IMG/VR virus record: IMGVR_UViG_3300032167_000002
Span: 338,312 to 402,311 of that record
Strand: one strand, 5' to 3'
Length of the DNA: 64,000 nucleotides
From: a virus
Taxonomy: Duplodnaviria; Heunggongvirae; Uroviricota; Caudoviricetes
The notes under the pieces were generated by a model. The model searched no databases. It saw only the letters and a program-made list of their open reading frames with translations, and was not told the origin of the DNA. The position numbers were made by a program, and so were the translations under genes. Positions 36,047 through 45,255 of this stretch are shown piece by piece. Within the stretch, counting starts at the first letter, position 1. Every line of letters begins with the position of its first letter.

Positions 36047-36760
36047 TTATAGAAATGGATCAGACATGAAGACATCCTCATCCCAGGTATCCAGGTTCAG
36101 CAGAACGCAGATTCCCGTAAAGACGGCGCCGCAATCAATGCAACATTTGCGGCCATCCGCATACCAAAGTGCACCAGGTTCAATATCTCCCATCTTGCAA
36201 CAGGGATCAATATCATCGAGCAGATATGGAATAGGCGTATGTCCATGAATGACGATTGCCTTCTGGAACATTTCATCTTCGGGCCAGGGGTCAAGGAAGT
36301 GATCTCTGTCCCAAAACAAATCTGTACCCCACGGCCAGCGCAGATTACCTTGATGATCCAGCGAAGGAGTAAATCCTGCGTGGGAGAGGTAAACAGTTTC
36401 ACCTTGAGTGTTGACATATGTTGCCTTAGTGGGAAGGTCGGCTAACTTAGCCTTCCACTCTTTCCAATCGGGTTCTTCCATAGCCTGTTCACAGGTCTTT
36501 TTACCTCCGTTACTACGAAGCAACGCCCAGGCAGAACCATAGCCATGACCCATAGCATTTACGAGCATATCCTCGTGGTTGCCTTTGAGGTAGATAAATT
36601 GAGGATCGTTCAAAACTGCCTTGATAGTTTCCCAGGGATGCGGACCACGATCACCAGCATCACCAAGAAAGTAAACCACATCTTCGGGTTTCAACTGTTC
36701 TTTTATAGTTTTATAGAAGTGTAGCATACCATGAAAGTCGCTACACGCGTAAGTAGCCAT
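36047..36760 (-). CDS. Calcineurin-like metallophosphoesterase.
   Basis: The motifs SDFHG, GDAGDRG and GNHE are present. Confidence 0.7.
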   Translation of the reverse strand: MATYACSDFHGMLHFYKTIKEQLKPEDVVYFLGDAGDRGPHPWETIKAVLNDPQFIYLKGNHEDMLVNAMGHGYGSAWALLRSNGGKKTCEQAMEEPDWKEWKAKLADLPTKATYVNTQGETVYLSHAGFTPSLDHQGNLRWPWGTDLFWDRDHFLDPWPEDEMFQKAIVIHGHTPIPYLLDDIDPCCKMGDIEPGALWYADGRKCCIDCGAVFTGICVLLNLDTWDEDVFMSDPFL

Positions 36761-36917
36761 TATTTCACCTTCTTCAAAATAAACATATAGTGTTCGATTT
36801 TCATTTCCTTCATTACCTCATGGACTTCTTCATATCCAGAGGTCATAACACCACCAAATGGATGCTTTGTAATTTCTCCATCTTTTTCGTGGAAAACAAA
36901 TCCTTTTGCCTCGTACA

Positions 36918-37481
36918 TCACTTTGCCTCCTTGATATAATTCAAAATCTCATTTTTGAAAATCATAACAAAGGGCGGAAGGACTGCCTCGAGCGCCGCAT
37001 CGGGCACGCTCGGATTCTCCAATAAGGCACGAACCGCAGTTGCACTGATATTCTGATAGCGATCGAGGAATTTGAAGCGCAAGCACCAGCGCTCGTCAGC
37101 ACTGAACCAGCTCAGCATAATCTGCGGATTGTCACTGTAATAGATTGTCATATCGGTGTCGCGTGTCTTACTCAACATCTTCATATACAGATAACGACCC
37201 CAATCGTGAGTGTTATTGGTCTCATCACTTAGATCGTCCAGGGGAAAGATATGAATATGCTTCATTTCATCGGAACTGAAGACTTCGTGAATCGCACCCT
37301 CGATCAGCATCAGACGGAAATCAATAGGGATTGGATTTCGCACAGTACCTTTCTTATCAGCAGAGCCGACGAAGATATAGAGTTCTGCGCCATTTGCTCG
37401 ACTATCTTCAAATGCCTTTTGGACCATATTCAAATGTCCTTTGTGAAACGGCTGTGCTCTAAATAAGATTACACCTGTCAT
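36918..37481 (-). CDS. Nucleotidyltransferase of the cytidylyltransferase superfamily; likely NMN/NaMN adenylyltransferase.
   Basis: The (H/T)xGH motif (FRAQPFHKGH) is present. Assignment relies also on its position within the NAD gene cluster. Confidence 0.55.
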   Translation of the reverse strand: MTGVILFRAQPFHKGHLNMVQKAFEDSRANGAELYIFVGSADKKGTVRNPIPIDFRLMLIEGAIHEVFSSDEMKHIHIFPLDDLSDETNNTHDWGRYLYMKMLSKTRDTDMTIYYSDNPQIMLSWFSADERWCLRFKFLDRYQNISATAVRALLENPSVPDAALEAVLPPFVMIFKNEILNYIKEAK

Positions 37482-37838
37482 TTATATCAATTCCTTTCTT
37501 ATCCTTTATATATATATTATATCATATTTTTTTATAAAAATCAATAATACCCCCTCGAGTTGCGAGGGGGTATTTTTTATTCTACATTTTCTAAATGACC
37601 TTCCCAGTCATCTTCTCCGTATATTACAATTTTATTTGTGGCATTGAGATATCCACCATCATAGTATAGGATACATTCTTTGATTGCGACGCCGAAAGCT
37701 TTACAATATTCCTCATAACTATCATACATTGTATCAACATAAGAGTGAAGAAATCGCTCAGCAGACTCTTTTGTATCAAATTCTAGAGCCTTACCATCCC
37801 AACAAAGTGGTCCATTAGATTCATTAAAAATGTGCCAC

Positions 37839-43123: not shown

Positions 43124-43751
43124 CGCCCGTAGCCATAGCTTCCTTGAGTGCCTCTTGGGCGACCTTCATATCACAGCTCTTGGACTTCAAAAATGGCATC
43201 ACATTTTTCATAATAATGCCCTTATTACCAGAGCAGATAGAAACTGCATTGCAGACGCCCCAGTACATAATCATCTTAACGATTTCATCCTTATCGTCAA
43301 TAACTTGAGGAGCGTATTCCGTTGCGATGGAGAGCTTCATCAGATATTCAGCCTTACGAGCCTTTAATTCTGCATCTCTCTTGGGATCGGCCGCTCCGTC
43401 GGGACAGGTATCGACCATCTCCTGGACGGTCTTCTTATACCTCAATAGCACTTCATCAACGAAGGCGTCAGTGATTTCCACTCTCTTTTTGCCAGAGGTG
43501 GCAGCTTTGTCGATTGTGGCGACCATATCAGCGAGAGTCAGTCGTCTCAGCTTGTCGCCTGCCTTCAAGGCCGCAGTCATATCAGCCTTGATGGTTTCAT
43601 ACTTATTCATCGGAATTACTCCTTTCTTCATCAAAAATAGTAATCCATTCTCTCCAATAGGGATCATAGCCGTCCTTAAACAGCTCTTCGGGGAAGATGG
43701 ATTTAGTTGTGTAAATGTGATCGACCAGACCATCGGTGCTGGCCATCTCAC
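43092..43751 (-). CDS. GatB/YqeY-domain protein. The true start is probably an internal Met (MNKYETIKADM...).
   Basis: A YqeY-like helical pattern is present. The 5' part of the ORF overlaps the Sir2 gene. Confidence 0.35.
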   Translation of the reverse strand: MRWPAPMVWSITFTQLNPSSPKSCLRTAMIPIGENGLLFLMKKGVIPMNKYETIKADMTAALKAGDKLRRLTLADMVATIDKAATSGKKRVEITDAFVDEVLLRYKKTVQEMVDTCPDGAADPKRDAELKARKAEYLMKLSIATEYAPQVIDDKDEIVKMIMYWGVCNAVSICSGNKGIIMKNVMPFLKSKSCDMKVAQEALKEAMATGDACIQAQLGS

Positions 43752-44451
43752 CCAGAATCACAGTCTTTTCCAGGTGTGTGACATACAGACTCACACTCTT
43801 GGCGCCGGCAGCCTTCAACGCCTTAGCAGAGTAGAAGAAAGTGCCGCCCTTGGAGCAGATATCGTCGACGATAAGCACATTCTTACCGGCAACAGCCTCA
43901 GCATTGATAATATCCAGACCCTGGATCTTACCGGTCGACCAGTCACGCTTCTTCATGCCAAAAGCGTAGGGAATGTCGAATTCACCAGAATATCTCTTCA
44001 TAGCGCCTTCATCGGGGAAGAAGAGTACATCAGCCTGGGCGCTGAAAATCGCGTCCAGAACATAATTGGTGATAGGCATTTCTCTGACATTATTCAGCAG
44101 GGCCAGGCTCACGTTACTATGAGCGTCGCGCACCCATACCACGGGAAAATTCAGCGAATTGATGATTTCGCAAAAGTATTTCAGAGTGAATACATCCTCC
44201 TGGGTCTTGGTGCGGTCCTGGCGAGCGTGGGGAATATAGGGCATAAACAGGCGGAAACTGTCTGCGAAGAAGTGCTGATCCAGGTGTCTCTTGAGGCAGA
44301 CTAGAGTAAAGAGTTCTGCATCATTTTCATAGAGCCACCAAATTTCGATATCATTCCCGTCGTCAGGAATGGAATCAGGATCGAATTTCATCAGCAGCGT
44401 ATTGTCAGGGAAGTTACCCTGGGTCACTTTGATTCCGTTTACTGTAATCAT
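43603..44451 (-). CDS. prs: Ribose-phosphate pyrophosphokinase (PRPP synthetase).
   Basis: PYIPHARQDR and a PRTase motif (LIVDDICSKGGT) are present. The start is taken as the ATG at 44451, which has a GGAGGAAAAG ribosome-binding site. Confidence 0.7.
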   Translation of the reverse strand: MITVNGIKVTQGNFPDNTLLMKFDPDSIPDDGNDIEIWWLYENDAELFTLVCLKRHLDQHFFADSFRLFMPYIPHARQDRTKTQEDVFTLKYFCEIINSLNFPVVWVRDAHSNVSLALLNNVREMPITNYVLDAIFSAQADVLFFPDEGAMKRYSGEFDIPYAFGMKKRDWSTGKIQGLDIINAEAVAGKNVLIVDDICSKGGTFFYSAKALKAAGAKSVSLYVTHLEKTVILGEMASTDGLVDHIYTTKSIFPEELFKDGYDPYWREWITIFDEERSNSDE

Positions 44452-44679
44452 AACTTTTCCTCCATGATGGTCCCATTCCAAGTTCTAAATCAGCACTACC
44501 GGCCCATCCAAATACTCGAAATGCTCGTAATTTGATATATGCTTTATATTTTTTGAAATTGCCATTACAGCGAATAAACGCAGAGGGGCAATAGGGTAAA
44601 TTTTCGTCTCGTAATTCAAACATCTATTCATCAGTCATTACATAACTGAATTTTTCTGCTTGAAGTTGAGAGTCAGAAA

Positions 44680-45255
44680 TCAGATGATATTGATCTGACA
44701 CAGCTTCATCGCCTCCAGAGCAGTCTTATGACTTGCAGGGGTGACACAGGCACAGCAGTCAGCCACAATATTGACAGGAACTTCGGGCAGAGTTGCCTTA
44801 CACAGAATAGCGTTGGAAAGAACGCAAATGCCGGTGCAGAGACCCATCAGCGTAATCTCTTCGATCGGTTCATTGTCATTCATAGTAGCCAGAATGTTCT
44901 GCAACTCAACAGAGCCGAAGCTGGGCTTCTCGATACGCAGGGGATTGGTAGTAGCCAGAGGATAAACCTCCCAGGGGTCTTTGAAATCCTTGCAACAGTA
45001 GGCTTCAAAAACCTCGTCAACGATGGAATGGCCGGCAGTTCCGGCGATGCAGTGCTCTACGGGCAGGTTCTTGCCCTCCAGGGTGTTTAGATAGAAATGT
45101 TCGTGGGTATCCTTAGTGAAAATACAGACAGTATTGGGATCAGCCATCTGCTTGATAGTTTCTGCAACCAGGGGCACAATTGCCTGCGCCTCCGGGGTGC
45201 CGAGGGAACCATCCACGAAGTCTTTCTGCATATCAACGACGATAAGAACTTTCAT
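44680..45255 (-). CDS. pncA: Isochorismatase-family nicotinamidase (PncA-like).
   Basis: MKVLIVVDMQKDFV, the catalytic Cys region (LMGLCTGICV) and a cis-peptide region are present. Confidence 0.65.
   Translation of the reverse strand: MKVLIVVDMQKDFVDGSLGTPEAQAIVPLVAETIKQMADPNTVCIFTKDTHEHFYLNTLEGKNLPVEHCIAGTAGHSIVDEVFEAYCCKDFKDPWEVYPLATTNPLRIEKPSFGSVELQNILATMNDNEPIEEITLMGLCTGICVLSNAILCKATLPEVPVNIVADCCACVTPASHKTALEAMKLCQINII

Follow-up and report, generated by a model that had tools for sequence, protein, structure and literature searches.

A conserved gut-phage gene cluster with a probable role in restoring NAD+ after attack by bacterial NAD+-destroying defences

By which route does a phage that carries an island of NAD+ genes restore this cofactor? 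The question is raised by the 64,000-nt stretch of the Caudoviricetes record IMGVR_UViG_3300032167_000002 that was analysed here (hereafter the window, to which all coordinates refer), and in particular by its island at 36047-45255, where every gene lies on the minus strand. Depletion of NAD+ is among the commonest antiphage strategies of bacteria, and NARP1, NARP1-AP, NARP2 and NARP3 are known as metabolic counter-measures. A first-pass annotation had assigned five genes of the island to Nampt (NadV), Nmnat, NadE, PncA and Prs, and had read them as an unusually complete version of a NARP2-type pairing in which Prs supplies phosphoribosyl pyrophosphate (PRPP). The five genes are indeed present with the sizes and coordinates given there, on which the open reading frames (ORFs) and our profile searches (Pfam, curated TIGR/NF models with their cut-offs, and PHROGs) agree.

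Since "Prs plus Nampt" is the usual mis-annotation of NARP1 genes, the first question is which pathway they belong to. In NARP1, the PRPS homologue Adps converts ADP-ribose (ADPR) into ADPR pyrophosphate (ADPR-PP), which the Nampt homologue Namat joins with nicotinamide to give NAD+, whereas NARP2 consists of a true Nampt and an Nmnat, as in phage KVP40 (10.1101/2024.02.11.579819, Osterman et al.). Judged by its sequences, the core of the island is of NARP1 type and not of NARP2 type, because an Adps-like gene and a Namat-like gene are present and a Macro gene directly follows the latter. The function of the conserved gut-phage cluster to which it belongs is most likely to restore NAD+ from what bacterial NAD+-destroying defences leave behind.

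The Namat-like and Adps-like proteins and their conserved neighbours

The 581-residue protein that had been called Nampt (NadV) is closest to the nicotinamide ADPR-transferase (Namat) of SPbetaL1, by sequence as well as by fold. With phmmer against PDB it scored 341 bits for this Namat, 255 bits for H. ducreyi NadV and 111-133 bits for the Xanthomonas and human Nampts. With Foldseek, its AlphaFold model (pLDDT 85.7) matched the same Namat best (E 6e-47, TM 0.91), H. ducreyi NadV being found at E ~1e-42 and human NAMPT at E ~3e-33. The name Nampt therefore has to be given up, and the reservation that had been attached to it, namely that the protein might turn out to be NAPRT or another phosphoribosyltransferase, was justified in part.

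The catalytic residues D13, Y15, F189, R192, H245, R306 and D308 (SPbetaL1 numbering) are invariant, as are S190, S391, F392, R40, T398 and D400 on the AMP side, of which R40 and D400 belong to the adenine clamp; S190, S391 and F392 are kept where Nampts have Gly, with Ser at 362. In window numbering, R36, F467 and D489 of the clamp are retained, as are R305, D307 and H241 of the catalytic site. Structures have defined the selectivity clamp of Namat and its nicotinamide-binding Asp215, which hydrogen-bonds the amide of nicotinamide and whose replacement in D215A lowers the activity with nicotinamide 8-fold (PMC12774641). In human NAMPT the amide is bound by D219, and NAPRT has Ser there, "directing specificity toward nicotinate" (PMC4442680). 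In the window protein this Asp is replaced by Ala211 (motif NTAT vs GTDT) and A242 by Ser; both changes are found in 120 of the 120 closest homologues (64-91% identity) and in all related Ala loci, and the larger metagenomic clade has Ala or Ser at the D215 position. Among the 150 nearest 50%-identity cluster representatives, this position holds Ala in 36, Ser in 17, Val in one and Asp in 89, and every non-acidic representative also has Ser at 242, so that the non-acidic clade amounts to 54 of the 150, in addition to more than 150 IMG/VR contigs. Positions 187, 194, 213, 215, 239, 240, 242, 299, 307 and 356 are clade-specific, and most of them adjoin nicotinamide-contacting residues in sequence. 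The protein also carries an insert of ~85 residues (~320-400), modelled as a helix and a three-stranded sheet with pLDDT >90, which is not tied to the Ala switch because it occurs in some Asp-type Namats as well (L062 and L063; labels of this form denote the viral loci gathered here).

The protein labelled Prs falls, by sequence comparison, inside the phage ADPR-pyrophosphate synthetase (Adps) clade and not with canonical Prs. PHROGs were dropped as a discriminator, phrog_619 giving 193 bits for E. coli Prs, 244 for the window protein and 287 for the Adps of ICP1; as it could not separate the two families, purpose-built hidden Markov models (HMMs) were used. The Adps HMM was made from PRPS-like genes beside classic (Asp/Glu-type) Namat in 80 viral loci and ICP1, whereas the Prs HMM combined the E. 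coli enzyme with a partial Sulfolobus Prs and with sequences of B. subtilis and human. The window protein scored 232 bits on the former and 64 on the latter, much as the biochemically verified ICP1 Adps (282 and 73), whereas true Prs proteins scored 133-139 and 343-555. In a neighbour-joining tree the window protein and its relatives were nested within the Adps radiation, apart from Prs. It is 35% identical to ICP1 Adps, reaches 78 bits on TIGR01251 (cut-off 113), measures ~280 residues without the C-terminal helices of PRPS, and keeps the catalytic Lys (K185 equivalent), F18, R87, H121, D161 and D212/D213. Its PP loop, DDICSKGGTF, has the Cys and Phe of the Adps type, the PRPS form being DD[MI][IA]DT.GT; the Adps active site has been defined by structures (PMC13586617). 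With the protein nested in the Adps clade, the idea of a phage Prs that supplies PRPP is not supported either.

Viral loci were gathered with ±10 kb of flank from three alignments (Ala variant, classic Namat and Ser-type representatives; ~240 viral loci overall), the residue at the D215 position was typed in each, and the flanks were searched with the window's proteins. The IMG/VR relatives came from alignment-based searches, a single-protein search of IMG/VR having given nothing, and megablast of the island against 50,697 phage records returned no match. NadE was present in 81 of the 82 Ala-type loci of the first set, and NadE, PncA and Adps together in 74, whereas the 82 Asp/Glu-type loci (classic motif GS[FY]T[YF]Q[YF].[TS]RD) had NadE in none, PncA in none and Adps in 80. 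The sole Ala locus without NadE is a 1.9-kb contig, and all non-acidic variants with enough flank adjoin NadE. In the third set, which shares some contigs with the first, NadE was found in all 77 Ala and Ser loci, a PncA-like gene in 74 and an Adps-like gene in 75, and its Ser-type subset (motif NKTSTIP) had NadE, PncA and Adps in 9/9. The association between residue and linkage stays perfect after dereplication (32/0 vs 0/64 at 90%, 15/0 vs 0/39 at 70% and 3/0 vs 0/23 at 60% identity). Moreover, more than 150 viral contigs show the co-directional order PncA > Adps > Namat > (Macro) > NadE, so the clustering is not by chance. The Macro gene is present in ~60-70% of related loci, and the conserved gene set of these loci includes no adenylyltransferase. 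PncA and NadE are thus a conserved signature of the whole clade, and not an embellishment that makes the window phage unusually complete.

Glu occupies the D215 position (GSETIP) in 25 of the 82 classic loci (e.g. L103, L105, L110-L112, L115, L116, L118, L120 and L121), which retain Adps and have neither NadE nor PncA.

A Ser-type representative, P0198, is a natural fusion of a Namat variant with an NAD_synthase domain (PF02540, 134.7 bits), the sole exception among the long Namat homologues (~800-1100 residues), which are mostly not fusions with Adps or NadE. In P0128, P0142, P0152, P0154, P0160, P0169, P0183 and P0239, 300-600 extra residues lie between the N-terminal and the catalytic Pfam domains; such extra residues in the long homologues could be inteins or large insertions.

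The labels PncA and NadE were both upheld, the scores being given in Table 1. All six PDB matches of the PncA-like protein are nicotinamidases/pyrazinamidases or cysteine hydrolases, P. horikoshii PncA being the best, and its catalytic D8, K110 and C144 and metal ligands D49, H51 and H68 are 100% conserved across 76 related loci. NadE also matches PF02540 (164 bits), and its PDB matches are NAD synthetases. The Macro protein scores 18.2 bits on PF01661, under the 22-bit cut-off, and is 27% identical over its full length (E 4e-10) to a "phosphatase" of Vibrio phage Pontus whose gene lies between Adps and Namat. Among solved macrodomains, those of the BT1257 and DarG types come nearest to it, and Poa1p (6LFQ) was not found by sequence search at E<=0.01. 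A Macro-domain ADPR-1''-phosphate phosphatase (Adpp) is what NARP1-AP adds in order to counter aRES, in which RES-domain proteins cleave NAD+ into nicotinamide and ADPR-1''-phosphate (10.64898/2026.01.28.702374).

A possible route to NAD+ and its rivals

From the family and clade membership, the residue changes, the gene linkage, the Namat-NadE fusion and the operon structure, we infer every substrate and product of the following route. It would start with a defence NADase that splits NAD+ into ADPR and nicotinamide. Phage PncA would convert nicotinamide into nicotinate and NH3, the Adps-like enzyme would make ADPR-PP and AMP from ADPR and ATP, the Namat variant would join ADPR-PP and nicotinate into nicotinate adenine dinucleotide (NaAD) with release of pyrophosphate (PPi), and NadE would turn NaAD, NH3 and ATP into NAD+, the NH3 released in the first step being the amount used in the last. 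The Macro protein would feed this path by converting ADPR-1''-phosphate or O-acyl-ADPR into ADPR. Nmnat might adenylate nicotinate mononucleotide (NaMN) or nicotinamide mononucleotide (NMN) made from PRPP, and thereby provide a second entry that leads into NadE or finishes directly.

On these grounds we lean towards reading the island as a NARP1-type reconstitution system with a Macro phosphatase, in the NARP1-AP layout, and as a distinct "deamidated" sub-type. We are evenly divided on a wider proposal: that the 581-residue enzyme and its Ala/Ser relatives act as a "nicotinate ADPR-transferase" (nicotinate + ADPR-PP -> NaAD + PPi, a reaction not yet described), that together with nicotinamidase and NadE they make up a fourth pathway of NAD+ reconstitution, a deamidated one that is widespread in large gut phages, and that the window phage, with its added NaMN/NMN adenylyltransferase as a second entry, is the first seen to combine NARP1-like and NARP2-like steps. 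The function first proposed for the island, phage NAD+ regeneration of a kind known to counter NAD+-depleting defence, is thus kept, and its assignment to NARP2 is not supported.

Several points weigh against the deamidated NARP1-type route. Why a phage should pay extra ATP for such a detour is a puzzle. The association between residue and linkage is essentially one clade-level event and not many independent ones, as the dereplicated counts also show. The clamp-helix motif of Namat, GS-x6-TRD, is broken by 8-25 inserted residues, for which the model shows a beta hairpin; in the window (GSFSFM[CLETIDEDGNAH]YNPYTRD) 20 residues, not six, separate GS from TRD, and the protein retains the loop Arg (R36) and an aromatic residue in position 3, yet the equivalent of the adenine-stacking Tyr396 is ambiguous, so that recognition of ADPR-PP could be altered. 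In the Adps-like protein, the PP loop is CS[RKY]GGT, whereas most Adps have CDGG.T; 11 of the 80 classic Adps, however, share the former. Namat enzymes, moreover, retain PRPP activity in vitro (PMC12774641), and NaMN could therefore be the real product. Finally, the nearest solved relative of NadE comes from Francisella and is an NMN synthetase (PMC3376133).

The main rival is a Preiss-Handler-like booster that runs via PRPP. Here the PRPS-like protein would make PRPP, the Nampt-like protein would act as NAPRT and produce NaMN from the nicotinate given by PncA, phage Nmnat or, in phages without one, host NadD would convert NaMN into NaAD, and NadE would finish. The PRPS-like protein, however, lies within the Adps clade and scores far below the Prs models, and S190, S391, R40, F392 and D400 are invariant in the transferase, though PRPP needs no R40, F392 or D400. 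This route accounts equally well for the missing Asp and for the linkage to PncA and NadE, Namat's own PRPP activity and the disrupted clamp helix speak for it, all five activities including the adenylyltransferase are found in the window, and annotated Preiss-Handler sets have been described in gut jumbo phages (PMC11662467). Yet, the window itself left aside, just three of the 161 related non-acidic loci that were examined have an adenylyltransferase (named loci L014 and L223 only), and an ADPR-processing Macro gene lies within most operons. We consider a route via PRPP unlikely.

A second possibility keeps the classic NARP1 reaction with nicotinamide despite the change from Asp to Ala, with Ser238 or another residue as substitute and with PncA and NadE boosting host salvage in parallel. 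The architecture of Adps, Namat and Macro is indeed that of NARP1-AP, and the 8-fold loss in D215A Namat leaves residual activity (PMC12774641), but why NadE and PncA are found in 0/82 Asp/Glu loci, and why a Namat is fused to NadE, would go unexplained, and a phage nicotinamidase would compete for Namat's own substrate; this is very unlikely in our judgement.

More doubtful still is a Francisella-type route, in which nicotinate and PRPP would give NaMN, the NadE homologue would act as an NMN synthetase and a NadM-type Nmnat would complete NAD+. It is suggested by the best solved relative of the window NadE, the F. tularensis enzyme 3FIU (118 bits), which works as an NMN synthetase with NadM (PMC3376133), and by the NadM/archaeal type of the window adenylyltransferase. 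The P. horikoshii NAD synthetase, however, follows only 2 bits behind (116 bits), hardly any related locus has the Nmnat, and the objections to the PRPP route hold here as well. The presumed specificity determinants of the Francisella NMN synthetase, Y27, Q133 and R236, correspond to T, G and R in the window NadE, a comparison to which we give little weight.

We attach next to no credence to NARP2 itself (Nampt: nicotinamide + PRPP -> NMN; Nmnat -> NAD+) with Prs, PncA and NadE added, since, although genes of the Nampt superfamily and of NMNAT type are both present, the 581-residue protein belongs to the Namat radiation and not to KVP40/Nampt and has no nicotinamide-binding Asp, Nmnat is without a Nudix domain, belongs to another transcription unit and is conserved only rarely, and Adps is present, whereas NARP2 phages lack it (10.1101/2024.02.11.579819).

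Returning to the deamidated NARP1-type route, a base-residue switch that is clade-wide and locked to a nicotinamidase and an NAD synthetase lets one predict an enzyme activity and a route that would both be new, and Ala211Asp should swap the base preference of the 581-residue enzyme. If this route is true, the automatic annotations "Prs", "Nampt" and "NAPRT" in gut phages would have to be revised, and "complete Preiss-Handler pathways" in phage metagenomes read differently. One may also ask why phages of gut anaerobes should take the way via nicotinate; possibly, the PncA of the host rapidly removes nicotinamide.

Layout of the island, accessory genes and phage context

The features of the island and of its surroundings are collected in Table 1. 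On the evidence of promoter elements and preceding hairpins, which delimit them, the island is made up of three transcription units behind a shared promoter element: PncA-Adps-YqeY-Sir2-lipoprotein ORF (unit A), orf101-orf70-Namat-Macro-NadE-NADAR-orf93 (unit B) and Nmnat-orf53-phosphatase (unit C). This element of 36 nt, ATTGATTTTTATAAAAAAATATGNTATAATATATAT, in which a 17-nt spacer separates TTGATT from an extended -10 TATAAT, looks like a phage-specific class of strong promoter. Nine minus-strand copies with at most two mismatches each are present in the window (36010-57686), zero being expected by chance; the four at the island are identical, and the three inside it directly follow strong hairpins, which bears out the earlier description of the island as consecutive cassettes. 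Across the window, copies of ATTGATTTTTATAAAAAAATATGNTATAATATATAT head successive minus-strand gene blocks, often right behind a hairpin terminator. Within unit B, the Namat stop overlaps the Macro start (TAATG) and the Macro stop the NadE start (ATGA). Five ORFs separate the Adps and Namat genes in the window, whereas the two genes are adjacent in most related loci. The Macro, NADAR, Sir2/CobB and YqeY genes were absent from the first-pass annotation.

Table 1. Features of the NAD+ island (36047-45255) and of neighbouring regions of the window, with window coordinates
Feature	Coordinates	Strand	Evidence or remark
Hairpin terminator, then promoter cassette	45321-45344, then 45285-45320	-	Head of unit A
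PncA-like nicotinamidase, 191 aa	44680-45255	-	Isochorismatase family, PF00857 79.5 bits
Adps-like PRPS homologue, listed as 292 aa from TTG	43603-44481 as listed	-	Likely start ATG 44451, giving 43603-44451, 282 aa
YqeY/GatB-domain protein, 219 aa as listed	43092-43751 as listed; feature span 43092-43610	-	PF09424 31.5 bits
Sir2/CobB-type NAD-dependent protein deacylase, 283 aa as listed	42272-43123	-	Likely start ATG 43090
134-aa ORF, lipoprotein-like N-terminus (MMKRFIAMLFALLMVLNLCAC...)	41917-42321	-	Closes unit A; no Pfam match
Hairpin terminator, then promoter cassette	41882-41915, then 41847-41882	-	Head of unit B
Pair of small ORFs, listed with 101 and 70 aa	41364-41881	-	Upstream of Namat-like gene; no Pfam match for the 101-aa ORF (orf101)
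Namat-like transferase variant, 581 aa	39601-41346	-	Nampt superfamily
Macro-domain protein, 158 aa, Adpp-like	39125-39601	-	phrog_335 "phosphatase" 140 bits
NH3-dependent NAD synthetase NadE, 271 aa	38313-39128	-	TIGR00552 159 bits (cut-off 63.65)
NADAR-domain protein, 149 aa	37839-38288	-	PF08719 99 bits
93-aa ORF	37577-37858	-	No family
Hairpin terminator, then promoter cassette	37546-37574, then 37510-37545	-	Head of unit C
NMNAT-like protein, 187 aa, stand-alone NadM/archaeal type	36918-37481	-	TIGR01527 48.7 bits, NF002243 45.2 bits, both under curated cut-offs
53-aa ORF	36760-36921	-	No family
NinI/ApaH-like metallophosphatase, 237 aa	36047-36760	-	PF00149 49.6 bits; phrog_246 114 bits
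Promoter cassette	36010-36045	-	Downstream of metallophosphatase
NAD-dependent DNA ligase	10901-12892	-	phrog_3869 535 bits
AAA_33 kinase	35033-35578
HD_4 protein	45570-46229
RNA-ligase-like protein with PHA02142 OB fold	46407-47834
RNase T-like exonuclease	48427-49338
Thg1	51195-52058
Major Vault Protein-domain protein, 826 aa	57724-60204	-	MVP_shoulder 86.5 bits, Vault_3 30.2 bits, both above cut-off
DUF2828 + DUF7788 protein, 482 aa	62536-63984	-	Matches phrog_850 "RNA-binding protein"

The Nmnat, Sir2, NADAR and YqeY genes are variable, lineage-specific accessories. The label Nmnat held as far as the family is concerned, all 11 PDB matches of the 187-residue protein being NMNATs and the motifs PFHKGH and ISATAVR (HxGH, ISxT) being present, and less well on the curated models, where its scores fall short. 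Its closest relative in a cultured phage is a stand-alone "cytidyltransferase" of Bacteroides phage BS-TP1 (L003, 11995-12549; 36% identity), with Adps, Namat, NadE and PncA all absent from the 12 kb around this gene. The Sir2/CobB protein (NF001752 274 bits, cut-off 221; PF02146 165 bits), found among the relatives only in L007, L014 and L019, would be an accessory that consumes NAD. The NADAR protein, whose PDB matches are E. coli YbiA and a NADAR protein and which occurs in about a quarter of the related loci, is a candidate ADP-ribosyl hydrolase, likewise accessory. YqeY is limited to long-form relatives (L005, L007, L009, L014, L015, L019 and L169), and homologues of orf101 were seen in L007, L014, L019 and L169.

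The window is DNA of a phage and encodes a primase, a DnaB-like helicase, topoisomerase II subunits, a thymidylate synthase, an endolysin and a sigma factor, and contains no tRNA gene. Its NAD-dependent DNA ligase implies a direct need of the phage for NAD+ during replication. The relatives are contigs that measure 100-245 kb and include metagenome contigs from IMG/VR as well as metagenome assemblies from ENA, and one is a "Bacteriophage sp." record from human faeces. A GTDB scan returned only two contigs, binned in one Acutalibacteraceae metagenome-assembled genome, a weak hint at the host.

RNA-repair-like genes flank the NAD island on both sides (34434-36760 and 45570-54299; also L171, 1-3262), and include, besides the RNA-ligase-like, HD_4, AAA_33, Thg1 and RNase T-like proteins of Table 1, four metallophosphoesterases. 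Vibrio phage Pontus has a similar set (NinI-like phosphatase, RNA ligase, ATPase and phosphoesterase) upstream of its NARP1-AP. The vault-like protein, unusual in a phage, is conserved in L005, and the DUF2828 + DUF7788 gene lies near it. Between 20000 and 32000 the GC content is 0.33-0.36, compared with 0.40-0.50 elsewhere, and several sign changes of the GC skew suggest that this block is mosaic or oriented differently.

Comparison with known systems

Like NARP1, the island combines an Adps-clade gene and a Namat-clade gene that are carried by a phage no more than 10 genes apart, and the K185 equivalent of Adps and the R306, D308, His and most clamp residues of Namat are kept. The window differs from NARP1 in the Ala of its Namat (Ala/Ser in the clade) in place of Asp, in the Ser that replaces A242, in the insert of the clamp helix, in the five genes that separate Adps from Namat, and in the obligatory linkage of the module to a nicotinamidase and NadE, the predicted product being NaAD and not NAD+.

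The likeness to NARP1-AP lies in the Macro gene (158 aa), which adjoins Namat and is homologous to the Thalassavirus "phosphatase" between Adps and Namat. The order, however, is Namat-Macro-NadE in the window and Adps-Macro-Namat there, the ADPR-1''-phosphate phosphatase activity of the window protein is a prediction, and its nearest solved macrodomains are DarG/BT1257-like, Poa1p not being detected by sequence. With NARP2 (NadV and NatV of KVP40), the window shares an enzyme of the Nampt superfamily and an NMNAT-type adenylyltransferase, but its transferase is Namat-like and without the Asp, its Nmnat is without Nudix and rarely conserved, and Adps is present. No phage with both NARP1 and NARP2 was found by the authors of these pathways (10.1101/2024.02.11.579819). 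As for NARP3, neither the PnuC transporter nor the NadR-like bifunctional enzyme was among the window proteins scanned, the window not having been searched exhaustively.

NARP1, NARP1-AP, NARP2 and NARP3 are already published, and a nicotinate-type variant of NARP1 appears to be undescribed: in the literature that we searched, which did not cover all journals, no paper linked NARP1 genes to NadE or PncA, noted the loss of the Asp, or proposed the formation of NaAD from ADPR-PP. The residue change itself has a parallel in the switch between NAPRT and NAMPT (PMC4442680), with a small non-acidic residue (Ser in NAPRT, Ala/Ser here) at the position of the amide-binding Asp, although the window scaffold is of the Nampt/Namat type and not of the PncB type.

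Large gut phages with KEGG-annotated salvage or Preiss-Handler sets have been reported as "NAD-jumbo phages" (PMC11662467), with which the present system has in common its occurrence in gut phages of large size, the clustering of the NAD genes and an NAD-dependent ligase. With the Preiss-Handler pathway (PncA-PncB-NadD-NadE), the island shares nicotinamidase, NAD synthetase and, as predicted, deamidated intermediates. In contrast to that pathway, it has no gene of the PncB or NadD family, its only phosphoribosyltransferase homologue being of the Nampt/Namat type and its only adenylyltransferase of the NadM/archaeal type. The PncB and NadD steps appear to be replaced by an Adps and Namat-variant pair that acts on ADPR.

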